NCBI GenBank assembly: GCA_016706425.1
Contig: JADJJR010000001.1
Coordinates: 491,133-555,132, forward strand
Source of the DNA: Elusimicrobiota bacterium
GTDB lineage: Bacteria; Elusimicrobiota; Elusimicrobia; FEN-1173
DNA length: 64,000 nt
Direction: 5' to 3'
The notes below the pieces were generated by a model. It did not search any database and was not told the DNA's origin. It saw only the letters and a program-made list of their open reading frames with translations. Every line of letters starts with the position of its first letter. The first letter of the stretch is position 1. Both the position numbers and the translations under genes were made by a program. This document shows, piece after piece, positions 3,506-64,000 of this stretch.

Positions 3506-3520
3506 CAGGATCTTTACAAC

Positions 3521-3558: not shown

Positions 3559-3700
3559 GTGGTCCATTTGACAAAGCGATGGCGAAACCGGCATAATGGA
3601 TCTGATTTCCGGCGAGGCTTTAATTTCCAACTTGCCCCGGCCGGCCCGAACGGGCGAACAGGGCGCTAAAGCGGTCGCGATCCCACCGGCTTATTCGATG

Positions 3701-3734: not shown

Positions 3735-3798
3735 TTGCCGCCAGGCAACGTACCGGTTTGTAGGACGGGATCAAAGCCGCTCCAAAACGGAGTCTTCC

Positions 3799-5091: not shown

Positions 5092-5095
5092 TCCC

Positions 5096-24607: not shown

Positions 24608-24747
24608 TCCTTTGTTTCTTGGGGCCCCTGTCTGATCCGGTTTCCGAACAGAAGAACCATTGAAAATACCCCCTCCCGGGGGTAGGCTTTAATAGGGGTT
24701 TCCATGGCGGCAACGGTCGGAAAAAACTGTTGGTTTCTGAGGGGATT

Positions 24748-26745: not shown

Positions 26746-26757
26746 AAGGAGCGACGA

Positions 26758-27558
26758 TTGAAACCGACCAACCGAGGCGTCACTTTGGTGGAATTGACAA
26801 TCGTATCCGCCCTCGTCGCCGTATTGGCCGTTTTCGCCGGTCGGATCCTCACCGGGGGCACGCGGACCACGGTGCGGTGGACCTTGAGCGCCGACGCCAT
26901 GGAAAAAACCCAGGTGGCCTTAACCAAAATTGAATTTGACCTGGAGGAAATGACGGTGGTGTCTTCCAGCACCCCCCGGTTCCTTGAATTTCAATTGGAT
27001 TCGAACCGATTGCCCGGGTATAACCCAACCGGGGACTTCGACGCCGACGGATTGACCAACGAATTCGACGTGGACGACGACGCCGATATGATCGGGGTGG
27101 GGGGCGTTCCCATCCCCGCCACCGACATGAACGGGAACGACCTCTGGGACCAAGACGACGACAACGATGGGAACATCGATGTCCAATGCCGTTATTACAT
27201 CGACGCGAACCAAAATTTGGTTCGGGATTTCAATTACCAGGAATCGGGATGGGGCAACAACGTTGAAATTCTGTTGGATTCAATTTCCGGTTCCATTTTC
27301 AAATATTTTGGATCCGTCAACCAAATTCCCGGGCCCAGCGCGGACAGCAATCGAGACAACATCGTGACCTGGCAGGAAATCGATCAAAACCCCGCGACCG
27401 GCAACAGCAACGGAGTGATCGACACCACCGCGGAGCGGCTTTACATCAATTCAATCAGCGTCCACTTGGTTATAGATAAAAACAACGACACGCTCCCCGA
27501 TTTTTCGACGGAGCTTCGGATTCGTCCGCCGTTGTTGATGGTCAACCGGAGGGTGTGA
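26758..27558 (+). CDS. Prepilin-type (pseudopilin-like) protein with Asp-rich calcium-binding-type repeats
   Basis: The N-terminus MKPTNRG|VTLVELTIVSALVAVLAVFAG is a class III signal. Repeated DxDxDG-like motifs occur (DFDADGLTNEFDVDDDADMIGVGG...DLWDQDDDNDGNIDV). AAGGAG precedes a TTG start. Confidence 0.6.
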   Translation: MKPTNRGVTLVELTIVSALVAVLAVFAGRILTGGTRTTVRWTLSADAMEKTQVALTKIEFDLEEMTVVSSSTPRFLEFQLDSNRLPGYNPTGDFDADGLTNEFDVDDDADMIGVGGVPIPATDMNGNDLWDQDDDNDGNIDVQCRYYIDANQNLVRDFNYQESGWGNNVEILLDSISGSIFKYFGSVNQIPGPSADSNRDNIVTWQEIDQNPATGNSNGVIDTTAERLYINSISVHLVIDKNNDTLPDFSTELRIRPPLLMVNRRV

Positions 27559-47639: not shown

Positions 47640-47777
47640 ACAAACGCGTTCTTTTTAACGGCACGCTCGCCCACACCGGCGGGAATATTGTTTACAACTT
47701 ATTTACATTTCCAAAAGGTCATCTTAAGGGCGGTTGGGTTTAATAGGGGTGTCGGGAAGGCGTCCAAGGAGGCCTTT

Positions 47778-47990
47778 ATGGGAAACACCACGATCGAAAA
47801 TACCTCTTGCAAAGAACCCCAAATCGCTTATCTTTGGATCAACGGTCCTCGACGGCGAATCCATCCGGTGGACGCCGACCTGCCCCTTCCGTTGGGGCGC
47901 GGCGTCGGCGGGAGCGGGATCTGTCGCCTTTGTGAAAAATTATTGACACCTTTTTATGCGGACAAACGAGACAAAAACCAAGTCCATTAA
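47778..47990 (+). CDS. Speculative small ORF (70 aa) with a strong Shine-Dalgarno, immediately upstream of and overlapping the start of the giant plus-strand gene
   Basis: AGGAGG lies 6 nt before the ATG. The product is MGNTTIENTSCKEPQIAYLWINGPRRRIHPVDADLPLPLGRGVGGSGICRLCEKLLTPFYADKRDKNQVH. It lies in a lower-GC intergenic region, has no homolog recognised and could be non-coding. Confidence 0.2.
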   Translation: MGNTTIENTSCKEPQIAYLWINGPRRRIHPVDADLPLPLGRGVGGSGICRLCEKLLTPFYADKRDKNQVH

Positions 47991-50900
47991 CCTTCATCGG
48001 CGTATAACGGCGGGCGGCCTGGCGGTCGCCTACGTTTTTAGCAACGTCGTTGGCGCCCACGCCGCGGAAGCGAGCGTGTGGAAGGAGCGCCGCGCGGCCG
48101 CCGTTCGGCAGCGCGCCGCCGGGGCCCAATACGCCCGTCTGCCCGGGGGATTGGCCTCCCCGGCGACCGACGCCATTTTCCCCACCCGACCCTCAACCCT
48201 GTTCCCGACCGACAACCCGCCCGGGACGGAAGAAAACGCCCCCCTGTCTCCGGCGGCGACCCGGGCCTTCGGCTGGTTGCCGGCGGCGGTGACTGCCCAC
48301 GGCGAAATCCGGCGGTTGCATGTGGCCCCCGGGGCGAACACGCCGGTGGTCATTCACCTGCAGGACGTGCACGAAATCGAAGAGGCGCAGCGCCACCTCG
48401 GGGGATTGGTGGAAGCGTTGTCCGCCGCGCGGCGCGCCGACGTGGTGGGCCTCGAAGGCGCCGTCGGCGCATTCAATTTAACCCCCTATCGCGCCGCGTC
48501 CCCCGACGTGGCCCGCGCCCTGGCCGGTGAATTTGTCCGCCTGGGTTACCTCACGGGACCCGAAGCCGCCGCCGTCGCGGCCCCCCGGTCCCCGACCCTT
48601 TGGGGGGTGGAGGACGCCGCCCTCTACAAAAAACACGTGGATGCTTTCGTCGCGTCGGAGCGGACGCGCGCCGTTTTCCTCAAACGCCTTGAGGCGCTGG
48701 ACGCCTCGGCCGCGGCCTTGCGCGGCCGGGTTTACCCCCCGGCCCTGCGCGCCTTGGACGACCGTCGCCTGGCCCACCTTGCGAAAAAGGAATCCCTGGG
48801 GGAATACACCCAATCCCTCTGGGCGGTCGCGGCCGACAAGGCCCGATTTCCGAACGTCGAGCGGTTGGTGAAGGTTTTGATGGAGGAAAAACGCCTCGAT
48901 TTTAAACGGGTGGAAGCGGAGCGGCAGGTCCTTATAGAGGCGTTGGTGCGGGTTCTTTCCCCGGCCGCCCTCGACCGCCTCATCAACCAAAGCCTGCGTT
49001 TCCGGGCCGGCGCGATGACCCACGGCCGATACTTCGCGTTTCTCCAGAATTTCTGCCGGGATCACGGCCTGCGCCTCGCCGCTTACCCGGCCCTTAACGC
49101 CTACATCGCCTACAGCCTATCGGCCGAAACGATTCACCGCGAACGGCTTTTGGAGGAGTTGGACGCCCTGGAACGGACCGCCCTGAAGGGTCTTGCCACC
49201 ACGGACGAGGCCCGGCGTCTTGTGGCGGCCCGCCGCGGTTTGGTTTTGCTTGAGAAACTCGCCCGCCACACCCTGACGCCCGCGGAGTGGGACGCCTATC
49301 GCGGGGACCGCGACGCCCTGCGTCAAATTCCAACCATCCTGGCCGGGTTGACGGGGAAAGGCGCCGAGGCCGAATTGCCCGAGGACTTGCTGGCCCCCTT
49401 CGAAGGTTTTTGCGCCGCCGCGTTGGAGCGCAACCGCGCCCTGGCCGAGAACCTCTTGAATAAAATGAAGGTTGAAAAAGCCTCGACCGGGGTGTTGGTC
49501 ACGGGAGGGTTTCACACGGCGGGCTTGTCCGAGATTTTGCGTGAAAAAGGCGTGTCGTTCGCCGTGGTCGCGCCGCGCTTGTCCCGTGTTCCCGAGGCGT
49601 CCCGCCCGCTGGACGTCTTCGCCCGCGCGCCGCTCCCCATCGAGACGCTGCTCGCCGGGGACGTCATCAATTTGGCCTACGCGCCGCTCACCCAAGTGGA
49701 GGGGACGCTGGCCGACGTCCCCCAGGGGGACGCCCGGCGGCAGGCGGCGGAAGCCCTGTGGGACACGCTTGATTCATTCCTTGGCGAAGTCAAAACCGGT
49801 TTCCAAGGCGAAGACCAAGCCCGGTTTGAGACCTGGGCCTCGGGGTTCAAGTCCATCAAGGCCGTGACCGCCCGGCCCGTAAAATTCCGCGAAACGCTCG
49901 ACGCCGTTTCCATCTATCTTGAGACGCGGTCGGGGGTGCAAAAACCCTTTGTTGTGCTGGCGGCGCCTTTGGGGGGCGAAGAAAGTTTTCCCGCCGCGAC
50001 CCCGGTCTACAGCGGTCGGTTCGCGCTGGATGGAATGGAGGCGAACGTCCGGGTTTACGATGCGCAAGACATTCCCCGCGGCGATTTGGGCGCGGTCGCC
50101 TGGGTGGACGCGGCGTCCGCTCTGCCCCGCCGTTTGTTTGCCGCGCTGCGGCGTCAGATCAACCTTCGCCGTTTGACGTCGGAGGAGCGCCGCATCGAAA
50201 GGGCCCACCGCGTCGCGATCGAAGAGGTTTCGAGGAAGAACGGCATCCCCGTCGAGAAATTGAGTCCTATTTTGGGCCACATCCGGCGCACGCGGGACCT
50301 GGTTTTGCGTTTGGGGGAAGAGCAAAACCTCCCCCTCGTGGACCGACAAATTCTTGCCGTGGCGGCCGCCGCCCACGACATGGGCAAGTTTCACGAAGAT
50401 TGCGCGGAAAGTATATTGGAAAAGCGGTACCACGAGCGCGGGTCGGCGGCGCACAGGGCGCTCGCCGCCCACGAGGAAGCGGTGTTTGAAATGTTGGCCC
50501 GGCACCAATTGAATCTGGGGCCGGACGCTGAATTGGTCCTTCGCGCCCACAGCGCCATCGGACCGCTGGGCCAACACCCGCCGAACGCCATCGAGGGCAT
50601 GACCGAACGCCACGTCCGAATGGCGTTGATCCTCGCCATGGCCGACGTCGGGGACGGTTACCGGGACATGAACCGCGATTATTTGAGAACCCGAATTGAG
50701 ACGGCCGGCTTCCCGGACACGACGGCCCTTTCGACGGAATTTCAAAAGTACGTCCGGGGAGCGGACCGCGGCGGGTTCGGCGGCGCCGCTTCCACCGCCC
50801 AGGCCGCCTTCCAAGAAACGCTGGGTCGCGGCTGGTTCGGCGTGGCCACGGAGCGGACCCTGATCGATCACGCGGTGCGCACGGTCGAAGAGGGGTTGGC

Positions 50901-53900
50901 CGCGGGGACCGATCCAAGCGACGCTCGTCGGTTGGCGCTGACGGTCGCGGCCGTTCAGAAATACAATCTCCCCGGTCTCGCCACGCCCCCGGATGTTTGG
51001 TGGCCACGGCTCGTGGAGTCCCTTTGGCTGCGGGGCGCCACGGGAGCCCCCCGCGGGGAACGTCTCGGGGCCCTGCGGGAAGAGATCAAAAAAGTCGTTG
51101 AGGGGAATCCTTCTCTGGACGCCCTGGGGTTGGACCTGCTGACTCTTTCCCTCCTGTCGCCCGACCGCGTCATCGGGTCCGCCCTCTGGAAAACCCGCGC
51201 CGAAGCGGAATCCTCCGAGACCGGGTTTGTTGAGTCGGTGCGGGGGGAACTTTCGGACGCGGAATACGAACAGATCCGATTCGTTTTAACTTTGACGATT
51301 CAAAACATCCTTCAACACGGGGCTTTTGATCCCCGAACACCGGTGGCCTTGACGGTCTCGCGCAAGGCCGGGTATCTCGTGATCGAGGCGTCCAACGGTT
51401 CTTTCTCCGAATTGCCGCTCCATCCCGACGCGGGCGCGCGAAAGACTCCGTCGGATACGATCACCTTGCCCGGCCGCGTCTACACCAAAACATCCTCCTT
51501 GCTTTTTGGGTTAATGGCCGATGAAAATCTACGGGGGCCCAGCACCAACGACGGGGAAGGGACGTCTTACGTGATCGGCGAGGTTCGTCAAAGCCCGGGG
51601 CCGGTCTCCCGGAAAGCCCTGTGGAGCGATTCCGGTCCCGTGATTAAACGTGCGGAGGGGGCGCCGCTGCGCAAAGTGTCATTCACTTACGTGGCTCCGG
51701 TGATAGAGGCGGACACGCCGACGGCGGTCTCTCTTTTAATGGCGGACGAAGCGTGGAAAAGCGCCGAGAACGCCGCGATCGCTTGGCGGACCGCGCTGGA
51801 CAACCAATTTTTGAAGAATCTGAGCGATCGGGACCGGGAAATGCGAATCGAGGAAATCTTCAACACGCTAACGTCTCTGCGGTCGCGTTTCCCCGACATC
51901 GATCGGTTCAACCTGGAAGCGGAAACGTTGTCTTTGGCCCGTGGGCCCGTGACTCTGTTGGAATGGACGGGCGCGGGTCATGCCGTGGCGGCCAAACGCG
52001 GTGAAATGGAAAACGCCCCCGACCTGGCGCGCCTCGCCCGCGTGGTGCCGACTTTGAACCTGTACCGGTTTTCCAAAATCTTGGAACAGCCCCTGGACAA
52101 TATCGCCCAGCACGGGGACCCCAATGGACCGGCGGCGGTCCGTCTGGTGTTCAATCGCGGCGCCCTCTCTTTGACGGTGTCCAACAGGACCTCGGAACCC
52201 CTTCCGGCGGAATTGGCGGCCGTTCTGTTAAAAACGCACACGCCGGCCGATGAGACCCCCCGTTTTCCCCGGGGACCGCGGTCCGGCCACGGCATCGGGG
52301 CGGCGAGCATGATCATCATGGCCAAGGGACTTTTCGCGCCCGAGGCGCAAGAGCGGCACGCGCGGGACATCCGCATCCGGTTCGCCCGGGAGGAACAGGG
52401 GGACCAGGCCCTGTTTACAACCGCGGTGGATATTCCGGCCCTGCCCCTCGGGGATTCCCAAACAAACACCAACGACGGCCAATCCGGCGCCGCGGCGGTG
52501 GCCCGTTGGTTGAACGATCACCGCGCCGAATTCCGTTTGGTGGCCACGGTCGCCAAAGCGAGCCGTGACACGGACGCGGCCATAACCACCGAGCGGGGGT
52601 CCCAAGGCTACACCGCCGTTGCGCTCCATCCTTATCCGGTGTGGCGCCACCGCGCCAAACTCGATGAACTGGTGGCCGGTTTGGAAGCGGCCGCCCCGGC
52701 CTTAACGGAACCCGGCCTTTTGCGGAACGAATGGCGGGCGCTTCTCTGGCGGGAGTTGGGGCACGCGCGCGCCGCGATCGGACCCGCCGAACCGACCGCG
52801 CCCGGGGCCGCCATCCGACTGGTGGGGGGCGACCTGTCGTCCGCGGAACACGCGCGGGTCAACCGGGCCATCCAGGCCCTCATCAAAGCGGGAAAAGCGG
52901 CGGCCGTTTACGGGGATCGCCCCGGGGTTCAAGAAAACGACAAAGCCCTCGCGACCTTGTCCCCCGCCGAGGCGACCGACGGTTTCGTCCTGGGGTTGCG
53001 CGGGATTTTGCGCCACGCTTTCGACACCGGGGAATGGCCCTCGGATTTCGATTTGATCGTGGTGGAGGGGGACATCCCGGCGGATGTGGCTTTGCACCCC
53101 GGCCATCGTCGCCACCAGGCCTATTTGCCCCGGGCCCTCTTTGACGGGTTGAGGAACCTGCTCCCCACGCTTTCCGGGCGTGCCGACCGAGAGAGCTTCT
53201 GGGAATTGATCCGGGAAATGATTCGCCACGAAATGGAACACATCCGCCACTTTGAAAAAACGGGGAAACCGGGGGGGGAGTCCGCGGTCGACGCGGTGGC
53301 CGCGTCCTCGCGGCCGCGGGCGCTCTTCCGGGTTTTGCACAGCGCGGTGGCCGCGCGGGCGGCGGGGGCCGCGCCGCGGTGGGACAATTTTTTTGACCGT
53401 TTTCGCGGAGAACGGACTTCTTATTTGCACGCCTACCTCCACCTGACGCCGGACCAACACCTGGCCATGGCCACGACCCTGGTCCGGCGGCAATACACCC
53501 GGGAAGACCGGGTCTTGGCGCAGCTTCACCTGGGGGCTGTGTTCGGCGGGTCCGACCCCTGGTCCGTCGTGTTCAAGAAAGCGCTCGCCCTGCTTAAAAA
53601 GAAGAACCTCGTCGACCAGGACCCCGAAACGGGAGACGCGTTCCCTCTCTGGAAGTTCGTTCAAGAATTGACCCGCCAGCACGCCCTGATCCGCGATCCG
53701 CGTCCGATCGGTGAAATCAACGTGATCGCGCAATCCCTGGACCAGTTCGACCCCTGGACACGGGGGGACGACGCCCGCGTCGGCGATTCCCTGCGGTTCC
53801 CCGGCCCCGGTCAATCGATGGCTTTGCCGTTGACGCGGGAGCAATTTGAAAAGCTCTTGGCGGACGGATGGTCGTCGATGAAAACCGCCGACCGGGCGGC

Positions 53901-56900
53901 GTTGTTGGCCCGGGTGTCGTACAACGAGGAAGGCCATTTACGAATAACGCGGGAGGATCTGGATCTGCTGGGCCGGCCGCTCGAGAAATTGAGCCTGGCG
54001 TCCCGGAGCGCGGCCGGTAAAGGCACGCGCTACGCGCGGGAAGATTTCGATGAGACGGGCCAAAAAATCATCCTCGACATCGCCAAGGGTGTTTACACCG
54101 TGCCGGTCGAAGAAGGCTCGCCCCGGGGGATCCTGGAGATCGTTTTGGCCCAGGCGCGGGCCCGCAACCTCGAGACCGGGGCGGGTTTCGAGGTGGATGT
54201 CCACACCAGCCATTTGACCGACCAACAAATCCGCTTAGAGCTCATCCGGCTCGGCTACGAGCCCAATTTCATGGAACGCTTCATGCCCGGATTTGTTCTC
54301 GAAAACCTGCCGGAATGGTTGTACACGCCCGGACTGTACACGCACCCCGCCGAAGGCTCCGCGCCGGTGAAAGTGCTTCGGGTGCGGGAAGCCCATCTCT
54401 TGGACGCGCGGTCCGGCGACTTTTACAAACACAGCGTGCCGGACCTCGATCTGTTGGAGGTGATGTGGCCCGACGCCCACGACACATCCTTCATCGACTT
54501 CATCGTCAGCGGACGGGCTTACGAGGTGTTCAAGCAAGGCAAACGTTTTCAGTTCATCGCCAACATCGACAACTTGGCGGCGGTCCCCTCCCCGGCGTTG
54601 CTCGCGGTGATGCGCCTGACCGGCGCCCCGCTCATCAACGAAGTCGCCCAAAAGCCGAAAGGCGCCAAGGGCGGTTCGGCCATCAAGTTTAGAGCGGGGC
54701 GGGTCCCGGGACCGGTCAATTTCGGCCAGCGGCGGGGTTTGGCCGAAGAGTTCCAGTTCGACGCGGCCTTCTTAAAGGGGTTGTCCCCCGATGAGGCTTC
54801 GGCCTATTTCCCGATGTTCAATACGGCCAACTACGTGGTCGACATCGCGCAATTCTCACGACGGTTCTTCAACGCCCCGGACGCCACGGAATCGGATGTC
54901 GAAGGGATGCTCAAGCGGTTTTACGACGCGCGCAACGACCCGGAGGAACTGCTGGCGATGCGGTTTGATTTGATCAACGATTACCGCCGCCAGACCCAGT
55001 TGTGGGAAAAAGACAAAACCCACCCCGCCCTCCAACCGGCGAGCTTGGCGGGCATGGTGACCTGGCGGGTTCCGACGCTCTTTGTGGAGGTGCCGGCGGG
55101 CGTGGCCGGGGGCTCGGATTCGCGTTTCGAACCCTTAAAAGAGAACATCGATAATTTCACCGCGAACCTCGCCCTGGTGGAACGTTTGGCGGGGGCCGGG
55201 CTTTCCGCCGGGACCCCGGTCGAGACCCTGCGCCCCGACGGCCTCTCCCCGGCCGACGCCGCCCGGTGGAAAAGTCTGGTGACGAAATTCAAAGGCAAGA
55301 CGTTGACGCAGGCGCAAGCGGATTTGGCGTCCAACGTCCGCTCGATTCGGGATTCCTTGGCCCGGGTCGCCGGCAAGCAAGCGCGGGACTACGCGGTCGG
55401 GCCCCCTCCCGCGGCGCCAAAGCCCCGGGCTCCCCCGATCGAACCGATCATCCCGGATTTGGGGGCCGTGAGCGCGGACATCGACCCTCTCGGCAAACTG
55501 AACCAGAGCATTCACAGCCTGAAGAGCATCGGGGACGTGGTTCTTCCCTCCGATCACCCGCTTTACGACCGGGGCGTTCCCCGGGACTTCGAAGTCCACC
55601 TGATCGGCGGCAAGGGCAATTTTCAATATGTGTTCAACGGTCCCTTCGGCCGCGTCCGCGCCCACGCCAGCGGTTTGACGTCCAAGAACAGCGACGATCC
55701 CCGGAAAATCCTTTACGTCGCCCAGGCTTATTTTGATGAGAACTTCGTCCAAGTCCCGGACCGCGTGGCCGCCGATCTGATCCGGGAGACGGACCGGTTT
55801 GATAAGTGGTGGCAAGCGACCCACCCTCCGTTGGAAGGCGCCGGTGATTTCGTCGGCTGGCTGGGGGCCTGGGCGCGAAAATTGCTCACCAACGTCGATT
55901 CCGGTCTCGAAGGCGGCGTCCAGGTGGCGCGTCCACAAGACGCGGCCATCCACGGGGAGGTCGTGCACATTTCCTACGAGGGCCCCTTTTGGGGGGCGGG
56001 GGGGGTGCAGGACGTCGTCACGGAACTGTTGCCGGAATTATCGCGGCAAGGGGTCAAAACCCGTCTTTTCGTTCCTCTTCATCAATTGGGTGTTTCGCGG
56101 GAGGTTCGTGACCTCTTCTTGAGCCGGGGGGTGGAGGGGGTGTCCCAATTCCCCTTGACCCGGGGCAAACACACCCACACCGCCCTGCGGGTAACGACGG
56201 TGGTTGTGGACGGAAAAACTTTTGGCGTTTACGAAACGGAATTCGAGGGCGTGACCGTGAATTTCATCGCCCACCCCGAAATGTTCTCGAATGGCTACGA
56301 GGGCCAGGAAGCCTTTTGGTCGAACGTCCCCGCGGACGTGCGCGAGCGGGTGGCGAACGGGGAAGCGGTGGAATCCTTCCGGTGGGCCTACGCCGGGAAA
56401 GAATACGACGCCCGCCTTCTTCGAACGGCCACGGTGGACGGTCGGGGGTCCTTTGTGTACCGGACCAACTACGGCGGGAAGGAAATCGATTTCGCCGGAT
56501 CCGTCGAGATGTTCCGGGCGCAGCGCACCACACGGGACCTTTATTGGGAAGCCACGTTGTTCTCGGCGGTTTCCGTCCGAGCGATGGAGGCCTTGAATCT
56601 GAAGCCCAGCGTCGTCCAGGCCCACGATTGGCAAGCCGCACAGGCCCTGGCGTACGTTCGAGGACACGCCCCGACCCGGGCGATTCCCGGGCGACGGGCG
56701 TTCCGGGTGGCGGTCAGTGACCGGTACGGGCACGAGCTTTTGACGGAACTGGGCAGCGGGGAGCTGGTCGGGGTTTTCCGCGAAGACGAAGAGGGCCTTT
56801 TGGGCATCACCAACGGGATCAGCCACAAAGGTTGGGACCCCGCCCAGCCCAAGCCCCGTCGGCAACAGCCGGCCCCGGAGGAGAACAAGCCGGTCTTGCT

Positions 56901-59900
56901 CGATTACGACTACGCCCCCTTCAGCGCGGAGAGCCCCGGCGGGAAGGTCAAGAACAAAACACAATTTCAGGAGGCGTCCGGGTTGACGGTGGATCCCACC
57001 GCCCCCCTGTTCGCGAGCGCGTTTCGCATCACCGGTCAAAAAGGCATCGAGGAAATCCTCGGCGCCGCGGCGCGGATCCTCGACAGCGGTGGGCAGATCG
57101 CCATTCAAGGGGTCGCCCACCCCGAAGAGGAGAAGCAGTACAAATACGTCGCGCGGCTGAAGGAATTGCAGAACCGGTTCCCCGGGAAGATGGTGTTCCG
57201 CGAGACCTTCGATAAAGACGCCGTCCCCTATTTGCTCGCGGCCGCGGATTTCTCCCTTTGGCCCTCGGAGTTCGAGCCCTGCGGGGTGGCCCACCAACAA
57301 GCCATGCGCTACGGGGCGGTGCCCATCGGTCGACGCGTTGGCGGTCTGGACACGACGATCATCGATGAGCGGGAGTACCCGGGGCACGGGACGGGATTCA
57401 AATTTAATTTAAAAACGGCGGATTCCCTTTGGTCCGCGGTGGAGCACGCTCTGGCCGTTTACCAAACCGACCCCGCCGCTTACGGGGATATTCAAAAGCG
57501 GGCCATGGTCGGCCCCCGGGATTGGTCGGAGGTCGCGCCGGAATATCTTGACGCCTACACGGCCCTGGACCGGGGCGAAATCCGCGAGACGGACGGGTTG
57601 GGGGACGCCGCCTTGATCACCGTGATTCACAACGCGGGCGCCGGTTACCAAGGGCGTTTGCCGCCGGGCGAGGCCGCGGGCCGGTTCGCCTGGGCCAAAA
57701 GTTTGACCGGGGGGTTCCCCCCGGGATTGAATTTCGACCCGCAGGGCGGGGAGTTTTATGGGTACTTGAACGCGTTGAAAATCGGCCTGGTCGCGCAGAA
57801 CCACCAGCGCCCGGTGCAGTCCGACGCGCTCATCGGCCACCTGCCCGTCGGGGTGGACTTGGCCGCCATCCCCCTTCAACGGGCGGCCGAGGTCCGGTCT
57901 GTCTATTCGGCCTTGGAGGGTTGGTTGGCGACCAAACTGGCCGGCCCCCCGCCCGCCACGGGAAAACAGAACCGGGCGGACACCGTCTGGAACAAGGCGG
58001 CCCTGTTGCGGGACGAGGTCGCCGGGCTGCTTCAAAACACCGATGTGGGCGTCTTCGACGCCGATGGAATTCAACGCCATTCCCAGGCCCGTGTTTTGGG
58101 GTATGGGTTCTCTCAGGATCCGACGGGCGGCGCCCGCGGTCGGTTGGGCCTGAGCGATGAGTTCTTTGAAAGAAACTCCGTCTTGCACCCCCACCTTTTG
58201 GAAGCCGCTTTTCACGAAGCGTACCACGTTCTTTTTGGTCTCGACGCCAAAACCACCCATCACCGCGACGCCCTGCGTCTGCAAGCCGTGCTTTTCTGGG
58301 GGCTTTCGGTCGAGGAGGCCTTCGCCCTTTCTTTAGACCAACTCGAAAACCACCCCAAAAACGCCCTGGGCCGCGCCCTCCGCATTCGCCGGCTCATGCG
58401 GGATTTCCGGGGCGAAGACATTTACGCCCTCCGCGCGCTCCTGCGCGAAAAAATGGTCCAGGGGCGGTTGATCGAGTTTTTGTCCGAAGCCGACGACGCC
58501 CTGTTCGCACCGCTCGCCCTGTCGCCCACCTCCCTGGAACGGCGCGTCCAGGAGCGGATTGATTTGATGCGCCGGGTGGAGGGGGAGGCCCCCCGTTCCC
58601 CTGGACAGGACGACCCCCGTTACGCCGAAGCCCGGCGCACCGAAGAGGATTGGGCCAAGCCCCTCATGGATACGGGCCCCGTGGAGGCGATCCATCCTGT
58701 TTTGAAAGCCATCGCGCTTTTGGACGATGTTGAGGAAACCCAATTGCTGGACGCCCTGGGCGCCGCGGTTGTCAAAGACGCGAAACTCGCGGATCGCCCC
58801 CTGGTGGACAGCGTTTTGTTGATGACCGGCCGCGTCCCCGCCAAATGGGCGAAGTTGCACGGCATCGCTTACCAACGCGTCTACCACCTATCGGCCGAAG
58901 GTCGGAAAGTGTGGGCCGGGGGCCTGGGTCCGGTGCAGGTGTTTCACAGCGACGCGGAGCGCGAAATCACCCGGGATTCTTCGGTCGATATTGCCGACAT
59001 CGAGCCCGATTACACCCATCGGCGCACGGCGGAGGGGTTGGTGCCCGCGGACGGCGTGGCCCCTTCGACCCCGCTCCTGCCCTCCGACGAACCGGTTTTT
59101 GATCTGGAAGTGGTGTTCGAGGACCGTCCGGTGAAAATCCGGGTGCGGCCCATGAAAGGCCCCGAGGGCAACCCGGTGTACCTCTTCCGCGACAACCCGG
59201 ACGGAGAGGCGTTTTTCACGAAACAACTCTACGATTACCGCGGCGGGGGGGACAACCCCGCCAGTTGGGAGGATTTCACCGCTTTTTTCAGCGTCGCCTC
59301 CTTGGCCATCATCGCGCATTTGGAAGAGGCCCGGCTCCGCGTGTTGGGGGCGGCCTGGCGTCCCCCGGTCATCCACGGCAACGACGCCCAGACGGCCATG
59401 GTCAACGTGCTGGTGTCCGAAGCCGTGGCGGGCGGCAACCCGCGGGCCGAGGCCCTGGCGAAAAAAATCCCATTTTTTAAACCCTTGGCCCGGTGGATCG
59501 CGCCCAGTTTTAAAACCCACACCTACGGCAACCGGCAGGGTTACACCTGGGGCCGCCCCACGGATCATTTCGGACTCCTCTCGTTTTTGAGCGGCATTCC
59601 GGCTTGGGACCACAATCGATTGATGGGTTATTTCGCGCGCAGGGGTCCCGAACAGAACGGGTACCCCGACGTCACCTCGGCGGGTATCGCCGCGACCCCC
59701 GGCCACGTGCAGGGTGTGGCCCGCAAGCACGCCTGGGACGTGGCCCGGAAATACGACGATCCCCATCGGGTGGTCGGTATCACCAACGGCGCCAATTTGG
59801 AATGGTCGGCCGGCTTGTTTCGCCGTCTATTGAAACAGGTGGGGGGAGAGAGCGTCGACCAGAACCGGCCCACCGCCGCCCAGGTGAAGGACGCCAAACG

Positions 59901-62900
59901 GTTCGCCAAACAGGAATTTTTCACGGAGCTTTTGGCCGTCAACGACCAAGGCCAACCCAAACATTTGGAATCGGAAGTCTTCAACCGGTTCCAGGATGTC
60001 CTGCGGGACCGCACCACCGGCACCCCCGCGCGGGTGGACCCCGCGATTTTGGCCCAGCCGACCGTCGGTTTTGTCGGTCGTTTGGTGGTTGAAAAGTTCA
60101 ACATGGGCCGGGCCTGGGCGCGTTTTGTGATCCGCGCGTTGGTTCGCGCGGGGGTCAACGTGGTTCTTTTCGCGCCGATTCAGCAAAAAAGCGACCCCTC
60201 GAGCCCCAGCTCGACCATCGCTCTCGCGCTCACGCAATTGGCCGCCAACCTTGACCGCGAATGGAAACCGGGGCACGGTCGCCTTTTGTTTATCGATTCC
60301 CGGGATTCGGAATTGAAAAAGAAGGCGTTGACCTCGCTCGATATCCTCGTTTTGGATTCCGACAAAGACACCGAAGCGAACGGCTACACCGAAGTGGCGG
60401 CCTCCGCGTCGGGCGCTTTGGTGATGGCCCCGCCGTTCCACAACGGCGAGGGGCTGATCCGCGGGCAGGGGATTCCCATCGACTGGTCGGCGCCGGGGCA
60501 CGGCAACACCATTTTGCCCGAAAATCAAAAATCCGAAGCCTACTTGCAATCCCTGCTCCAGGCGACGGAAGTGTATTTTGATCGACCCGACGATTTTGCC
60601 GCCCATCAGGCCACCTCGGTGCGTTTGAGTCGGCCCCTGGAAGCCCGGTTGACGGCGGCGGCCTCCCTGCGCGATTTCAACTTGAGCTACCAACTGCCGG
60701 TGGATGTTCGCAGCGACGGGCGGTGGCGGACGGGCGTTGTGGCCCCCGCGGGCGTCCCGGTCAAGATCGACGCCGTCGTGCGGCTCCGACCGGGAGTGGA
60801 CACACGCCACGTGGAGACCCGCGTTCGCCTGGCCCCGGTGCGGGCCTGGGGCATGGACTGGGGCGCGGTCCAGGAAATAACCCTCCAGCCCACGAATTGG
60901 GTGGTGACGGGCGAACTCGGGTCCCAAAACGTCACCTACGCCGTGGAAGTGGAATTGGCGCCCGGGCAATATGAATTTATCGTGGAAACCCGCGACCGAC
61001 GCGAACGGGAATGGCTGGTGCAGGAGGGGATTTCCTGGGGACAAAACAATCGTTTGACGATCGGGGCGCCCTCGGACCCCGCGGGGCTTCTGCCCTTCTG
61101 GCGTCCCGTGATTCAACAGCTCCGCTTCCTGGGGTGGTCGGATCGGCGGATCGGCGCGGGTCTGGGTTTCCTGGAGGAAGTGCTCCTGATGGGGGGCGTT
61201 TCCTTGATCGCCGGGGCGATGGGGGGCCTGTTCGGCCTGGGGGCGACGGCGGGTTTCTTGTCCGCCTCCGCGGCCGCGGCGGTCCTCTTCCCGTTGGGGC
61301 ACGTCGGCCGTATTTTCTATTACGATTATTCCGGACGGTTGAAGACGCGGCAAACGTCCGCGCGCGAGCTTGTCCGTCTTTTGACGGTGGGCGGGCTGTT
61401 GCGCGCGATCCACGCCGGGCTCTTTTTCGCTTTGCCGTGGGTGTTGACTCTCCTGGCCGGGGCGCCGTTGGCGGGTCCGCCGAGCGGGGTGGTGATCTGG
61501 GCCGCTCAAATCCTTCCTTTCCTGGTTGTTCCCGCTCTCCACGCGCGTTACGATTTCCGCCCCCCGGCCGGCTGGCCGCTCGCCGTTTTCGACCCCCTCG
61601 CCCCTGTAAAAAAATTGGTCCCTGTTCTTCGAGCCATTCGATTCATCCCGACGACAGGCGCGCCGGTAGACGGCGGCGCCTACAACGCGAACCCCCAACG
61701 CACGCGAATTTTGGACAAGGCCTTCGCCCGCTTGGTCAAAGCCGATCCGGCGGCTTTGGCCCAGGTGAACATGACCGCCTTGCGCGCCATCGCCGAATTG
61801 GTCCTCGAAAACACGGAACAACACGGGACACCGGGGGCGGAGGCCTCCCTCGGGCTCCGAATCCAGGATGGCCTAATCCGACTGGAAATATTTAACGAAT
61901 CGGCCGAAGCGCTTCCGACGGCGTTGAACGGGGAATTTTCGGTGGAGCGCCCGAACGGCGCCGTTCCTGAAGCCGAACGGGGCGTCGGCACGCGCTGGGG
62001 ACAAGGCGTGTCAAAAATCCCCACGCTCGCCGGGGTTCTTTACCGCGACGCGGAATCGGACCTTTCTTCAAAAATTCGTTGGTCTTGGCGGCGGGACCCG
62101 TCGGACGGAAAAATTGCCTTTGTCTTCACGGCCCCCGTCCCCGCCGCTCGACCCCAACGGCCGTCCCCCACCGAGTTCGCGACCGAATGGCAGATGTCCG
62201 GTCCCGCGTGGCGACAGGCCAAAACCGCCGCCCGGTCCGTGGTCTTGGTTCTGTTCCTTTCACTGGCCGGTTGGGGCCTGCCGGTGGAATCACCCCGGGC
62301 CCAACCCCCCATCGCCGCGCCCGCGGCGAGCGCAGACCACTACATTGACGCCGAGGCGTACCAGGCCTTCCTGCTCCAGCGCCCCGCCACGCCGGCGATC
62401 CCGCGGGAATACGCCCGGGCGATTTTGTTGGGTCTTTTGCAGGACCTGATCCCGAATCTTCTGGATAAATCAACGCCCGAGAGCTCCACGCCCTCGATCG
62501 AAGAATCCCTTTATTTCTATTCCAACGCCCGGCAGGCCATCGAGGCCATCTTGGATTCCCCGGCCCTCTTGAAGAACATCCAAGCGCCCGAAATCGTGGA
62601 CGCGCTGAAAGCGTTGCGCGCGGATCTTTACGACGAATTCGTTAATAAAGAGGTGGGAGCTCCGGACATCGTTTACTGGAAGAAACGCTTCGCGGCGGTG
62701 CGCGGTCTCCTCGAATTGAGCGCCCCGTTGGTCCGGGAGTTCCTGCGACGGCAACCGGCCGTTCCATCCACCGCCGGCACACGATTGGGGTCTTTGTCGC
62801 CCCTTCGGTCGGAGCGGGAAACCTTGCTGGCCATGGTCGGGGTGCTTGCGGCGGCTCCGCGACCGCGGCGGCGCAGCCTCTGGGAGAAAGCGGGGGCGAT

Positions 62901-64000
62901 AGACGAGGATCGGCCGGCCGAATGGTTGGGTTGGGAAGTGCGGTCCATTCAGTTGCCGGACGGGCAGACCCTGCGCGTGGCCCTGCGGCCGGGCAACCCG
63001 GCGGTCCCCGGCGTGGTTTACATATACGGAGGGGGGGAAGCGGCGTTCAACCCCGCCTTGGATTTTGGCGAAGCCACCGTCGTGATCATCGAGCGGCGCA
63101 CCGAGGTGAAAGCCCAAGAACTGATTCTGAAAGCCGCCGCGGATATTCGTCTGGTCCTTCCCCGACTCGAAAGCCAGAACATCCATTTCCCGCAGGGATT
63201 TTTCCTGGTGGGCCACTCCTTGGGGGGGCACATCGCGGCGGAACTGGCCACCGCGTCGCCGACGGCCTTCGCCCGGAAAATCCGCGGGATTGCCACCATC
63301 AATTGGGCGGTGCCGCAGCCGGCTTTCATCGGGCAAATGAACGCGGTGATCGGGTGGATGAATCAGTCGGTGCGGGTCTTCTCGCTGTTCACTTTCTGGC
63401 CTTTCGTGCCCGCCCAATGGGCGAAGTTCCGTGAAACCGCCATCAAAAATCTCGACCGTTTGATTGTTCCCCTCACGGCGCACGCCTATCAAATCGTGAC
63501 AGGCCGTACCCTGGTGTTCGACAAACACTTCGCGCCCCTCAGCCAGGCCGCGGCGGAATCGGAAGCTCTGCAGCACTATTTGCGGGACCGATTTTCTCAA
63601 ACTTGGGCAACTTTTGAACGGGAAAACACCCTCCCCATCCTCCTCATTCGGAACACAAACGATCCCTTGACCTACGGATTGGCGGCCCGCGTTCGCGACC
63701 TCCACGTTTCCGATGAATTCTCCGACCAACGTCCGGTCCGTTGGGCGGTCAATTTGATGACGGGCGACCACCCGGCGGAGTGGCACAGTCCTCACATGGA
63801 CGCGAGCCAAGTGGCGCTGGTGGCGGACGCCCTAAAGCAGTTTATGAAGCACGCGACGGCGCCGGCGGGGGAAAACGTGCTCGACTTCCCGCCCGCGGTG
63901 GCCCGCGCTCCCCGCGTTGAATTTCGCCAATGGGGCCTCTTGGGTTCCCTGGGTTTTGCGGTGGGGCTCGCGACCCTGTCGATGGTCTATTTGGCCGGTG
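47956..64000 (+). CDS. Giant multidomain protein, 5' part (at least 5348 codons open to the window end, so not in the ORF track). Order: signal-like N-terminus, conserved N-terminal module, HDIG, GHKL kinase-like x2, UGPase-like, glycogen-synthase-like GT-B, alpha-glucan-phosphorylase-like GT-B, beta-rich domain, TM cluster, GHKL #3, GxSxG alpha/beta-hydrolase, TM helix
   Basis: Frame 1 has no stop from the ATG at 47956 to nt 64000. The previous frame-1 stop is at 47944-47946. The N-terminus is [42 protein letters not shown]. I spot-translated multiple segments (listed in the domain entries) and all are in frame 1. Confidence 0.8.
   Translation, partial: [5348 protein letters not shown]
48250..49600 (+). 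other. Conserved N-terminal module paralogous to the minus-strand giant protein
   Basis: ...[26 protein letters not shown]...VVGLEGAVG...APRSP...[18 protein letters not shown]...GRYFAFL...[15 protein letters not shown]...[10 protein letters not shown]...[23 protein letters not shown]...[13 protein letters not shown]...FAVVAP. Confidence 0.6.
50250..50720 (+). other. HDIG-type HD phosphohydrolase domain
   Basis: [40 protein letters not shown] (HD at 50374-50379) with downstream conserved His/Asp (..[10 protein letters not shown].., ..[10 protein letters not shown]..). Confidence 0.6.
51230..51650 (+). other. GHKL/HATPase_c-like domain 1 (RsbW/SpoIIAB-type Ser kinase fold)
   Basis: The N-box-like motif is [42 protein letters not shown]. 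A G-rich segment lies downstream ([11 protein letters not shown]). Confidence 0.5.
52000..52450 (+). other. GHKL/HATPase_c-like domain 2
   Basis: [37 protein letters not shown]...[15 protein letters not shown]. Confidence 0.5.
53980..55000 (+). other. UDP-glucose pyrophosphorylase (UDPGP/UGPase family)-like nucleotidyltransferase domain with a divergent G-loop
   Basis: [16 protein letters not shown] corresponds to UGPase [30 protein letters not shown] corresponds to [36 protein letters not shown]...[15 protein letters not shown] corresponds to YIFVSNIDNLGATVDL...EVTNKTRADVKGGTL. Confidence 0.6.
55960..57600 (+). other. Glycogen/starch-synthase-like GT-B (GT5-like) domain
   Basis: The N-terminal motif is [40 protein letters not shown] (compare GlgA EvAPfaKtGGLgDVvgaLPkaL). 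The C-terminal half reads ...[37 protein letters not shown]... then ...[37 protein letters not shown]. Confidence 0.7.
58870..60520 (+). other. Second GT-B domain resembling the alpha-glucan phosphorylase (GT35/GlgP-like) and glycogen-synthase family
   Basis: [30 protein letters not shown] (compare aYFSmEfgl...YsGGLGvLAGD), ...[14 protein letters not shown]..., ...[20 protein letters not shown]... and the C-terminal Rossmann half [15 protein letters not shown]...VVLFAPI... Confidence 0.5.
61740..61960 (+). other. GHKL/HATPase_c-like domain 3 (clearest anti-sigma-factor-kinase-like N-box)
   Basis: [46 protein letters not shown] polytopic TM cluster precedes it (about 61130-61560). Confidence 0.55.
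62950..63800 (+). other. Alpha/beta-hydrolase (lipase/esterase-type) domain
   Basis: The nucleophile elbow is [16 protein letters not shown] (GHSLGG at about 63211-63228). It is preceded by [12 protein letters not shown] (an oxyanion-region-like motif). Downstream Asp/His candidates are ...NTNDPLT... and ...GDHPAEWH. Confidence 0.55.

Follow-up and report, generated by a model that had tools for sequence, protein, structure and literature searches.

Organization of the locus and integrity of the giant gene

The window analyzed here is a 64,000-nucleotide stretch from the genome of an activated-sludge Elusimicrobiota bacterium that is abundant in wastewater. Frame 1 is free of stop codons from position 47947 to 64000 (5,351 codons), with its first ATG at 47956, exactly as an earlier reading of the letters alone (hereafter the sequence-only reading) had described. 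The single giant membrane protein which that reading postulated is borne out by a 9,577-aa product predicted from the same ATG in five NCBI MAGs and one independent Logan short-read assembly, all of the same species. The whole gene measures 28.7 kb; the window holds its 5' 56%, and the stop codon lies approximately 12.7 kb past the window end. On contig JADJDY010000001.1 of assembly GCA_016702405.1, the calculated start of the gene is at about 612,910 and its calculated stop at about 641,643. The sequence beyond the window was read from the orthologue L016, up to about residue 9350 of 9,577. The features that concern us are, in window coordinates:

29722..39735, minus strand: paralogous 3,338-aa giant gene (tblastn, translation, PF00535)
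47778..47990, plus strand: conserved 70-aa upstream ORF with the Shine-Dalgarno sequence AAGGAGG, a C...CxxC pattern and a 35-nt overlap with the giant gene from its ATG
47956..64000, plus strand: giant gene, residues 1-5348 of 9,577 (open frame, coding signature, six assemblies, purifying selection)
48001..48069, plus strand: signal-peptide-like hydrophobic segment, aa 16-38, ending in ...VGAHA before AE (hydropathy)
48253..49590, plus strand: N-terminal module (N-module), aa ~100-545 (~450 aa), EreA/ChaN/TraB/Tiki-like fold
50212..50670, plus strand: phosphohydrolase domain of the HD type (HDIG/HD-GYP-like), aa ~753-905, with HDMGK at aa 807-811
51253..51705, plus strand: GHKL-like module 1, aa ~1100-1250, N-box IQNILQHG (alignment, profile matches to HATPase_c domains)
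52051..52446, plus strand: GHKL-like module 2, aa ~1366-1497, N-box LDNIAQHG (alignment, profile)
53227..53241, plus strand: HEMEH (HExxH) motif within the aa ~1540-1990 region (sequence)
53953..55215, plus strand: UDPGP-family (eukaryote-type UDP-sugar pyrophosphorylase-like) domain, aa ~2000-2420 (Pfam, PDB)
55951..57570, plus strand: GlgA-like GT5 glycogen/starch-synthase domain, aa ~2666-3205 (Pfam, TIGR02095, BLASTP)
57823..58515, plus strand: FHExxH domain, aa ~3290-3520, motif FHEAYH ... RLQAVLFWGLS (homology to relatives P0010/P0011)
58873..60690, plus strand: second GT-B domain, closest to GT35, aa ~3640-4245, PLP lysine absent: TEANGYTEVAASASGAL (Pfam piece, AF2, Foldseek)
61150..61551, plus strand: TM block of two helical hairpins, aa 4399-4532 (hydropathy, charge pattern)
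61753..62160, plus strand: GHKL-like module 3, aa ~4600-4735, N-box LENTEQHG (BLAST, alignment, profile)
62215..62295, plus strand: single hydrophobic helix, aa 4754-4780 (hydropathy, charge pattern)
62983..63825, plus strand: probable alpha/beta-hydrolase, aa ~5010-5290, GHSLGG at aa 5086-5091 (weak Pfam match)
63928..64000, plus strand: first part of a further TM hairpin, which in the orthologue spans aa 5325-5378 (hydropathy, charge pattern)

A chance ORF is ruled out because, at the stop probability of 0.026 per codon given by the base composition, a run of 5,351 codons has a probability of about 1e-61. The codon-position GC values (GC3 0.70-0.82 and GC2 0.40-0.55) are even along all 16 kb; hence, frame 1 is the true coding frame throughout. 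The shorter gene calls that occur in some assemblies trace to contig ends or to indel-bearing assemblies, such as L009, which differs from the window by 6 gaps.

Comparison across lineages adds a selective dimension to this picture. The product of a second lineage (L001/L004) shares about 80% amino acid identity with the window protein, and its frameshifts fall at differing sites in L001 and L004 although the two assemblies are 99.99% identical. A third lineage (L016, 79.5% amino acid identity) has a single unbroken frame of 7,269 codons, from residue 2086 to about residue 9350. Between lineages, dN/dS ranges from 0.02 to 0.55 in each block of 150 residues, mostly lying near 0.1, and the linkers are under purifying selection just as the domains are. 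The lowest values (0.02-0.1) fall in the UDPGP core, the GT5 domain and the C-domain of the GT35-like module, which argues that these are working domains rather than relics. The selective constraint throughout, together with the agreeing assemblies, establishes that the giant ORF is real, intact and conserved. An assembly chimera or interrupting stops, which the sequence-only reading had itself named as grounds for discarding its call, and likewise a pseudogene, are ruled out by the six agreeing 9,577-aa calls, the open frame of the third lineage and dN/dS values well below 1. Self-BLAST of the giant protein recovered no internal repeats, and a contig scan with the C-terminal 650 aa of the window part returned no match.

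The flanking genes code for YebC, RuvCAB, SpoIID, QueA, BamA, an RND efflux system and similar products, and an operon-level link of the giant gene to these neighbors was accordingly rejected. RuvA and SpoIID match proteins of Elusimicrobiota MAGs exactly, in agreement with the taxonomic assignment. No glycogen-branching enzyme or other glucan genes were found nearby, and neither a secretion system nor glycoside hydrolases adjoin the giant gene.

The small upstream ORF retains 57 of its 70 residues at equal length in L001 and was called on at least 38 contigs; it has no Pfam match. Since the giant ATG is not preceded by a Shine-Dalgarno sequence of its own, the arrangement of the two reading frames suggests that they may be translationally coupled.

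A signal-like start and a conserved N-module define a large family

The giant protein begins with a signal-peptide-like segment flanked on both sides by K/R-rich sequence, such that the early mature region would carry 4 K/R per 15 residues. Directly after this segment comes a conserved E-x-x-(F/V)-W-x-E-R-R motif, and the pattern of h-region, AXA and FWxxRR recurs in dozens of relatives. In the N-module that follows, a helical insertion of about 290 residues accompanies a small alpha/beta core, in which the motifs QDxH, LEGA and GGFH are invariant. Both its fold and its conserved His/Glu/GxxH set match the EreA/ChaN/TraB/Tiki superfamily, and its GGFH region gives a weak match to PF04187; no Pfam or NCBIfam model includes it at the sequence level. 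In contrast to the other members of that superfamily, the N-module invariably forms the N-terminal part of very large proteins.

This N-module stands at the N-terminus of 9,712 representative clusters, with protein lengths from 600 to more than 7,600 aa. Eighty N-module loci come from MAGs labelled as Elusimicrobiota, Omnitrophota or Planctomycetia, in which a genome has several paralogues. The cargo differs in each of the 13 members that were scanned and includes PPDK, GT5, GH77, UDPGP, HATPase_c, GlnD NTase, AAA_5 and other domains. One such paralogue, the 3,338-aa giant gene, lies in the window itself: it has the same signal-like N-terminus and an N-module of 37% identity, followed by a TM block, a GT2 domain, an HExxH motif and more TM segments. 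The giant protein is one of a very large family, as yet without a name, of large-to-giant proteins, whose members combine a signal-like segment and an EreA/ChaN/Tiki-like module with their own enzyme-like cargo set between TM hairpins. What is new here is this combination of a signal-like start and an approximately 450-aa N-module, which heads about 9,700 clusters with differing cargo.

Enzyme-like domains along the chain

The cargo of the giant protein includes domains related to glucan metabolism. The UDPGP-family domain displays the motifs AAGKGTR, NIDNLAA and KGGS and scores 29.6 bits against PF01704 (cut-off 22), this match covering only positions 161-237 of the 413 in the profile. All 16 of its PDB matches are UGPases (best E 1.8e-4), with PxxH, DNL(G/A)A and KGG in alignment, and its dN/dS is 0.03-0.08; the UGPase-like domain of the sequence-only reading is thus upheld by profile and PDB matches. 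Its proposal of a GlgA-like GT-B domain has strong backing: PF08323 matches with 58.5-84.8 bits (cut-off 22.7), PF00534 with 36.5-37.6 bits (cut-off 26.4) and TIGR02095 with 227 bits, the last lying under the family cut-off of 328. BLASTP against E. coli GlgA gives 4e-33, with AHDW, RxxxQKG (ITGQKG), FEPCG (EFEPCG) and GGLxDT retained, Lys15 of KTGGL replaced (WGAGGV) and about 50 residues deleted in the N-domain. Judged by these sequence features, this is a divergent GT5 domain and not a canonical GlgA.

A PF08323 piece matches the second GT-B domain in Pfam (25.8 bits), and the AF2 model of this domain has a pLDDT of 51.7 overall and of 70-90 in the C-terminal half. All of the top 50 Foldseek matches of this low-confidence model are GT35 phosphorylases (E 8e-8 to 7e-6; TM-scores 0.3-0.38), which speaks weakly for the GT35-like assignment; no Pfam, NCBIfam or PDB sequence match to the phosphorylase family was found. 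A search of PDB sequences with the profile of this domain gave none, and a homologue search with the same profile added two close fragments and nothing else. The segment aa 4037-4186 is strongly constrained (97% identity, dN/dS 0.02). In an alignment that is not statistically significant, TEANGYTEVA here corresponds to TEASGTSNMK of E. coli GlgP, with Ala in place of the PLP lysine, and the same Lys-to-Ala change at the GT35 PLP signature is seen in P0010/P0011. A canonical PLP-dependent phosphorylase is ruled out by the absence of this lysine, and the phosphorolysis that had been proposed lacks support. Likewise, a complete route from UDP-glucose to glucan had been deduced rather than observed, and it is not supported.

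Interspersed with these are modules of a potentially regulatory or hydrolytic character. The HD domain scores 19.7 bits in Pfam (cut-off 22), but its family profile finds HD-GYP phosphodiesterases in the PDB (4mcw, E 0.0036; 5z7c, E 0.045), its H, HD, H, H and D residues are all invariant in four relatives, and PF01966 is annotated on the proteins P0001-P0003 in precomputed matches. No Pfam HATPase_c match was obtained for the three GHKL-like modules, described at first as RsbW-like; yet a profile of seven module sequences matches histidine-kinase HATPase domains (E 0.0014) and SpoIIAB (E ~0.09). Their N-box NxxxHG is invariant, and the Asp of the G1-box is replaced by an equally invariant Asn. 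Within the gene, constraint is weakest in module 2 (50-55% identity, dN/dS 0.3-0.5), of which module 3 is a paralogue, a kinship visible by BLAST only through the orthologues. For both the HD and the GHKL-like modules, then, the original assignments survive in a weak form.

The HExxH region at aa ~1540-1990 has no match to a peptidase or any other family in Pfam, and the FHExxH domain has none in Pfam or the PDB. The latter always occurs just ahead of the second GT-B domain in relatives and is present twice in P0010/P0011. The GxSxG hydrolase of the sequence-only reading is indeed present as a GHSLGG-bearing alpha/beta-hydrolase, with a sub-threshold Pfam match to Abhydrolase_6 (22.9 bits, cut-off 26.3) and a weak precomputed match in L004. 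About 40% of the window part of the protein has no domain assignment, and a PDB single-sequence search with aa 3201-5348 and the 4,040-aa extension found designed TPR proteins only.

Past the window, the orthologous chain shows weak CofD/YvcK-like, GlnD-like nucleotidyltransferase plus ACT, and TPR matches, with every domain match in this part lying below the curated thresholds. A HAD-like DxDxT motif (IYDLDDT ... GDK) and a PGI/SIS-like stretch were seen by eye alone, and neither call has Pfam or NCBIfam support.

Membrane segments and topology

By hydropathy, the giant protein has about 16 hydrophobic helices in addition to its signal-peptide-like N-terminus, and the polytopic TM block expected from the sequence-only reading was found at aa 4399-4532. 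No hydrophobic segment occurs between aa 38 and aa 4399. The 14 hairpin flanks hold 48 K/R residues, a count that none of 20,000 random draws reached, and such K/R-rich outer flanks at all seven hairpins favor a cytoplasmic location for the large modules. This positive-inside reading is in conflict with the N-terminus, whose signal-peptide-like AXA site predicts export of the N-module. Were the signal peptide functional, the lack of TM segments between aa 38 and aa 4399 would mean that nucleotide-dependent enzymes totalling 4,360 residues lie outside the cytoplasm.

Relationship to known giant proteins and glucan enzymes

Giant multi-enzyme membrane proteins, a poorly understood kind of protein, occupy several percent of some small genomes. 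They have so far been described only in preprints on the neighboring phylum Omnitrophota, as 'multi-enzyme metabolic cluster' giant proteins (Nielsen and Lui, 2026, bioRxiv 10.64898/2026.06.07.730766) and as 'Archaeovorin'-type giant proteins (West-Roberts et al., 2023, bioRxiv 10.1101/2023.11.21.568195). Since these giants include GT5, GT1, HATPase_c, HD, HAD and PGM/PGI domains, the architecture cannot be called undescribed, as had been claimed. Like them, the protein reported here is a very long chain with a signal peptide and/or many TM segments (roughly one per few hundred residues), along which many differing and highly divergent enzyme domains are tiled. GT5 (PF08323), GT1 (PF00534), HATPase_c, HD, HAD, TPR and sugar-phosphate enzymes are common to both, and in both the metabolic domains are at odds with the predicted topology. 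With at least nine domain types, no dominant repeat, TM segments and a signal-peptide-like start, the window part has the domain composition by which the Omnitrophota giants are recognized.

There are differences as well. At 9,577 aa, the protein lies under the thresholds of 10 kAA (Nielsen and Lui, 2026) and 30 kAA (West-Roberts et al., 2023), its host phylum is Elusimicrobiota, and no secretion genes adjoin it. SecA_DEAD, which is common in the West-Roberts giants (West-Roberts et al., 2023), has no match in aa 1-5348 or the L016 extension, and neither have HEAT, C39 and S8. Going by their descriptions, the published Omnitrophota giants have N-termini without identifiable domains, as opposed to the EreA/ChaN/Tiki-like N-module here; at the N-module loci in Omnitrophota MAGs, ORF lengths range from 1,700 to over 3,800 aa.

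The succession of a pyrophosphorylase-like domain, a GT5 domain and a phosphorylase-like GT-B domain recalls the logic of glgC-glgA-glgP. Unlike GlgA, GlgC and GlgP, however, all three domains are fused in one membrane protein, a branching enzyme is absent, and the pyrophosphorylase, in contrast to GlgC, is of the UDPGP (PF01704) family. The resemblance to the cyclic-glucan synthases Cgs/NdvB noted in the sequence-only reading holds as a conceptual one, both being large polytopic membrane proteins that pair glucan synthesis with a phosphorylase-like domain. It does not extend to the domains themselves, Cgs/NdvB being GT84 + GH94 proteins and the transferases here being of GT-B alpha-glucan types; with no Pfam match to GT84 or GH94 anywhere in the window part or the L016 extension, a synthase of the Cgs/NdvB type is ruled out.

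Possible functions of the giant protein

The best reading of these observations, and one that we hold to be somewhat probable, is that modules for alpha-glucan metabolism and for regulation form a string stapled to the membrane. The chain would be fastened to the inner membrane as a string of enzymes holding a glycogen-like alpha-glucan synthesis/remodelling route, with its large modules on the cytoplasmic side. NDP-glucose would be formed first, followed by alpha-1,4 polymerization by the GT5 domain; the PLP-less GT35-like domain may serve as a glucan-binding or non-phosphorolytic partner, and the nucleotide-sensing/regulatory modules would be placed alongside this route. Speaking against it are the HD, GHKL and alpha/beta-hydrolase scores below curated thresholds, the Asn in the GHKL G1-box, the GT5 domain without the KTGGL lysine and a piece of its N-domain, and the pLDDT of 51.7 of the GT35-like domain, as well as the lack of a branching enzyme or glucan genes nearby and the signal-peptide-like N-terminus itself.

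That N-terminus, with its h-region and AXA site kept family-wide, argues for an alternative that we regard as rather unlikely, namely an exported or surface effector. Here, a functional signal peptide would bring aa 38-4400 into the periplasm or onto the cell surface, where carbohydrate-active and hydrolase-like domains would act on extracellular polymers or the envelope of another cell, as proposed for the Omnitrophota giants. The absence of TM segments between aa 38 and aa 4399 and the sharing of the N-module fold with the secreted effectors HopBA1 and RRSP fit such a role, and both preprints describe topologies with a signal peptide and TM segments, predict the metabolic domains to lie outside and favor effector/CAZyme roles (Nielsen and Lui, 2026; West-Roberts et al., 2023). 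However, the NTPs or NDP-sugars on which the UDPGP, GT5 and GHKL-like domains depend are unavailable outside the cell, 4 K/R within 15 early mature residues disfavor Sec export, the hairpins all have strongly positive outer flanks, and the gene adjoins no secretion system or glycoside hydrolases. Moreover, we know of no predatory or episymbiotic habit in this Elusimicrobiota lineage. An altogether different fate of the chain, which appears improbable to us, is that of a polyprotein: once inserted in the membrane, it would be processed into individual enzymes by the Tiki/TraB/EreA-like hydrolase at its own N-terminus, by the HExxH modules or by both. The invariant D-x-H, E and GxxH of the N-module belong to a fold group whose members include proteases, such as Tiki and RRSP, and HExxH motifs recur in the giant protein and its relatives. 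West-Roberts et al. (2023) also raise self-cleavage in the case of giant proteins with N-terminal peptidase domains. Yet not all relatives in that fold group are proteases, EreA and ChaN being two that are not; there is no peptidase-family match for the HExxH regions and no known cleavage site, and the linkers are as constrained as the domains.

One might instead suppose that most modules have ceased to be catalytic and play a binding or structural part in a membrane-associated lattice. The position of most domains far under family thresholds, the GT35-like domain without the PLP lysine, the GHKL modules without the G1 Asp and the GT5 domain without Lys15 are in keeping with such a pseudo-enzyme scaffold, as is the extreme divergence noted for the domains of giant proteins (West-Roberts et al., 2023). 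Nonetheless, we deem it highly improbable: GT5 keeps the E of FEPCG, the R/K of RxxxQKG and HD, UDPGP keeps DNL, KGG and GxGTR, and nowhere in the gene is constraint stronger than in these motif regions (dN/dS 0.02-0.1).

A broader extension of the membrane-stapled string reading, distinctly doubtful at present, is that the N-terminus and N-module constitute the unrecognized head of an 'enzyme-string' superfamily of about 10,000 clusters common to Elusimicrobiota and Omnitrophota, including the famous giants, with the head inserting, anchoring or self-processing the chains, and that the 9,577-aa protein is a complete, membrane-stapled glycogen metabolon. If true, sugar-phosphate handling, UDP-glucose formation, polymerization and regulation would all reside on one polypeptide.

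Implications

As a representative of such giants, a protein of 9.6 kAA is of manageable size; many assemblies carry its gene intact, close orthologues are at hand, and its UDPGP and GT5 domains are recognizable and strongly constrained, with an activity that can be assayed. If the reading as a membrane-stapled metabolon is true, it would represent an unusual organization of storage-polysaccharide metabolism; if the chain is exported, nucleotide-dependent folds would have been repurposed outside the cell. The conserved N-module unites proteins of Elusimicrobiota and Omnitrophota in a single family and provides a handle with which such proteins can be found, classified and mutated.

A real and conserved gene of 9,577 residues

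The giant ORF is a real, well-conserved gene of 9,577 aa. Frame 1 is free of stops from position 47947 to the end of the window (5,351 codons), with the ATG at 47956 as its first Met codon, and a random open run of this length has a chance of ~1e-61 at the stop probability set by the window's base composition (0.026 per codon). Codon-position GC is steady throughout the 16 kb (GC3 0.70-0.82, GC2 0.40-0.55), so the whole run is coding in a single frame. The adjacent upstream genes encode RuvA and SpoIID with sequences identical to those of several NCBI 'Elusimicrobia/Elusimicrobiota bacterium' MAGs, and a SpoIID look-up gave ten contig sites with one gene order (Omp85-YebC-RuvC-RuvA-RuvB-SpoIID-QueA-giant gene) and the same giant-gene ATG. 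A single 9,577-aa product is called in six assemblies of these sites (GCA_016702405.1, GCA_016720205.1, GCA_016707615.1, GCA_016715575.1, GCA_016711425.1 and an independent Logan assembly of SRR17331998); thus, the window covers residues 1-5348 (56%) of this product. Contig ends truncate the call at two sites (4,336 and 7,622 aa) and it is split at two (2,765 + 6,810 aa; 6,912 aa plus a remainder), the assembly with the former split differing from the window by six indels.

Orthologues occur in two further lineages. The second, represented by the JGI contigs L001 and L004, shows ~80% protein identity with synteny kept. These contigs are 99.99% identical in DNA, yet their frameshift positions differ, leaving fragments of 968 + 8,202 aa in one and of 2,765 + 2,289 + 387 + 610 aa and more in the other; judged by this comparison, the frameshifts are assembly errors and the gene itself is intact. 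The third lineage (contig L016; 79.5% protein identity) has 7,269 codons without interruption, from window residue 2086 to residue ~9350, ending short of the stop. The open frame noted by the sequence-only reading is thereby confirmed.

A 70-aa ORF (47778-47990, plus strand) with a C...CxxC pattern and a perfect ribosome-binding site, AAGGAGG, runs 35 nt into the start of the giant gene, whose ATG is not preceded by an SD. It is called on at least 38 contigs and lacks a Pfam match; both this ORF (57 of 70 residues conserved) and the preceding non-coding stretch (region 47690-47990) are conserved between lineages above the gene average. The ORF could be a leader that, through coupling, drives the giant ORF's translation.

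Domain architecture

Features of residues 1-5348 of the giant protein (plus strand; counted from Met 1)
aa 16-38: signal-peptide-like segment, ending AHA↓AE
aa ~100-545: N-module, an N-terminal module conserved across homologues
aa ~753-905: HD domain, motif HDMGK
aa ~1100-1250, ~1366-1497, ~4600-4735: GHKL-like modules 1-3, from profile search
aa ~2000-2420: UDPGP-family domain, from Pfam and PDB search
aa ~2666-3205: GlgA-like GT5, matching PF08323 + PF00534
aa ~3290-3520: FHExxH domain, without a Pfam or PDB match, always N-terminal to the second GT-B in relatives
aa ~3640-4245: second GT-B, from Foldseek on an AlphaFold model
aa 4399-4532: two TM hairpins
aa 4754-4780: single hydrophobic helix
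aa ~5010-5290: probable alpha/beta-hydrolase, motif GHSLGG, Pfam sub-threshold
from aa 5325: next hairpin

About 40% of these residues are without domain assignment; for the remainder, the domain reading made from sequence alone was largely right. The UGPase-like domain it proposed scores above the Pfam cut-off (29.6 versus 22 bits), all 16 of its PDB matches are UGPases (best E 1.8e-4), and the motifs DNL(G/A)A and KGG align between them. The GlgA-like GT-B likewise holds: it matches E. coli GlgA (BLASTP 4e-33) and retains AHDW, RxxxQKG, FEPCG and GGLxDT, while falling below the TIGR02095 cut-off (227 versus 328 bits) and differing from the E. coli enzyme in the absence of Lys15 and an N-domain deletion. 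In the second GT-B, Pfam recognizes only a GT5 fragment (25.8 bits) and a profile search of PDB sequences gave no match. Its AlphaFold model is of low quality (pLDDT 51.7 for the whole domain, rising to 70-90 in the C-terminal half), but the best 50 Foldseek matches are all GT35 glycogen/starch/maltodextrin phosphorylases (E 8e-8 to 7e-6, TM-scores 0.3-0.38). The motif TEANGYTEVAASASGAL parallels TEASGTSNMKFALNGAL of E. coli GlgP, with Ala where the PLP lysine stands. Therefore, going by its model, this domain is probably phosphorylase-like in fold; a canonical phosphorylase is ruled out, and the phosphorolysis earlier considered lacks support.

The regulatory-type assignments are weakly supported. 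The HD domain lies below the Pfam cut-off (19.7 versus 22 bits), but a four-sequence family profile matches HD-GYP phosphodiesterases in PDB (E 0.0036 and 0.045). The three GHKL-like modules, first read as RsbW-like, have no Pfam match, but a seven-sequence profile matches the HATPase domain of bacteriophytochrome histidine kinases (E 0.0014), as well as SpoIIAB (E ~0.09) and other kinases. Their N-box NxxxHG is invariant, an equally invariant Asn replaces the G1-box Asp, and modules 2 and 3 can be shown to be paralogous. For the proposed GxSxG hydrolase, the motif stands without a Pfam match above threshold.

Against both lineages, dN/dS per 150-residue block is 0.02-0.55 (typically ~0.1), being lowest in the UDPGP core, GT5 and the second GT-B's C-terminal half, and highest in GHKL-like module 2. 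Separately, dS against the L001 lineage drops to 0.15-0.32 at ~50815-51715 (aa 954-1253, including GHKL-like module 1), versus ~1.0 elsewhere in the gene, with unremarkable amino-acid identity; this suggests recent recombination between the lineages.

Observations past residue 5348 come from L016 and L004 and are all sub-threshold: a CofD/YvcK-like match (E 0.0066), a UPF0489 match (24 bits), a GlnD-like nucleotidyltransferase with ACT (NCBIfam E 6e-7, far under cut-offs), TPRs and five further hydrophobic blocks. A DxDxT HAD-like motif and a PGI/SIS-like stretch were seen by eye only, without tool support.

Taken together, the three carbohydrate modules parallel the GlgC-GlgA-GlgP scheme by which glycogen is metabolized, which suggests NDP-glucose formation by the UDPGP-like module followed by alpha-1,4 polymerization by the GT5 module. 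The PLP-less phosphorylase-like domain may be a glucan-binding or otherwise non-phosphorolytic partner, and a regulatory role would fall to the HD, GHKL-like and GlnD/ACT-like modules. Such a pathway would be a plausible reading.

Membrane topology

The polytopic block of the earlier reading corresponds to the hairpins at aa 4399-4532. Across residues 1-5348 and the L016 extension (composite aa 4402-8858), seven of seven hairpins have uncharged inner loops of 3-6 residues, whereas their 14 outer flanks hold 48 K/R, a count reached in 0 of 20,000 random draws; six K/R lie in the 24-residue loop separating the first two hairpins. By the positive-inside rule, these K/R-rich flanks would put the large modules on the cytoplasmic side, a fitting location for enzymes that need nucleotides. 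The N-terminus, however, looks like a cleavable signal peptide, given its family-wide h-region and AXA. As hydropathy reveals no hydrophobic segment at aa 38-4399, the hairpin charge pattern is at odds with a functional signal peptide, and the N-terminus itself has features that speak against one: the hydrophobic segment is K/R-rich on both flanks, and the conserved FWxxRR stretch that follows the presumed cleavage site is more basic than is usual in exported proteins. If two of the 'hairpins' were instead counted as single spans, most of the charge data would become compatible with a real signal peptide, and the UDPGP, GT5 and GT35-like modules would then lie outside the cell.

The N-module family

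The N-module is recognized by no model in Pfam-A or NCBIfam beyond a weak Pfam match to the ChaN/Tiki family, and its good AlphaFold model (pLDDT 81, pTM 0.73) found no Foldseek match. D137-x-H139, E167 and G-G-F-H520 are invariant, and the module starts every other homologue found (P0002-P0011, 960-2,560 aa). A 10-sequence profile run against 1.84 billion representative proteins retrieved 9,712 clusters (50% identity) at E <= 1e-3 and 6,597 at E <= 1e-30. Among the best 150 of the 9,712, protein length ranges from 579 to 7,623 aa and nearly all have the module starting within the first ~170 residues. The cargo differs in each of 13 members scanned with Pfam, comprising PPDK, GT5, GH77, UDPGP, HATPase_c, GlnD NTase, AAA_5, ABC1, LCM, LMW-PTP, M48, VWA, GT2 and transglutaminase. 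In species-representative genomes, 80 loci fall in Elusimicrobiota, Omnitrophota and Planctomycetia-labelled MAGs, with ORFs of 2,000 to at least 3,900 aa and, in nearly all, a signal-like N-terminus. Elusimicrobiota carry several loci per MAG, some single MAGs having at least four paralogues with differing enzyme cargo, including PPDK, GH77, AAA_5/VWA, ABC1 kinase and glutamate dehydrogenase (P0006).

One paralogue lies in the window itself, along with other genes:
29722-39735, minus strand: second giant gene, 3,338 aa, divergent, ~8 kb upstream of the giant gene
24730-28910, plus strand: three consecutive ORFs of 671, 266 and 452 aa
317-3502, plus strand: 1,062-aa protein of CARDB, fn3, Ig-like and three Big_7 domains

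The 3,338-aa protein is paralogous to the first 600 residues of the giant protein (37% identity) and has a signal-like N-terminus and N-module, continuing with a TM block, GT2, an HExxH motif and additional TM segments. Its C-terminus reads ...(T/I)(Q/N)A, as in several family members, which hints at a shared C-terminal element. The three ORFs have a GC of 0.57-0.58 against ~0.65 and no Pfam match at E <= 1e-5; the 1,062-aa protein is, by its domains, probably of surface or adhesin type.

Relationship to known giant proteins

The sequence-only reading took the architecture to be undescribed; in view of two preprints on Omnitrophota giants this is incorrect, and its novelty was overstated. West-Roberts et al. 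2023 (bioRxiv 10.1101/2023.11.21.568195) report many TM regions in all full-length giants, N-termini without identifiable domains, GT5 glycogen-synthase-like domains as the most prevalent glycosyltransferases (glycosyltransferases ranking second among domain types in the 'Archaeovorin' type), the additional presence of GT1, TPR, PGI, PGM/PMM, TPI, FBPase, aldolase and PPDK, and very large genes in Elusimicrobiota too. Nielsen & Lui 2026 (bioRxiv 10.64898/2026.06.07.730766) define a 'multi-enzyme metabolic cluster' class whose recurrent Pfam modules fall into two groups, one of HATPase_c, HD, HAD and methyltransferase and the other of starch synthase PF08323, PF00534 and PGM; they find SP+TM in 39% of proteins and keep four hypotheses: effectors, secreted CAZymes, membrane-anchored cytoplasmic enzymes and mobile passengers. 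The giant protein matches the published description in every qualitative respect, but differs in its lesser length (9.6 kAA), its phylum and the absence of SecA_DEAD, HEAT, C39 and S8 domains. As far as we could find, neither the UDPGP-GT5-GT35-like order nor the N-module has an earlier description in the literature. The giant protein is thus a further case of a known but barely understood kind, the giant multi-enzyme membrane proteins, on which the N-module family provides a useful new handle.
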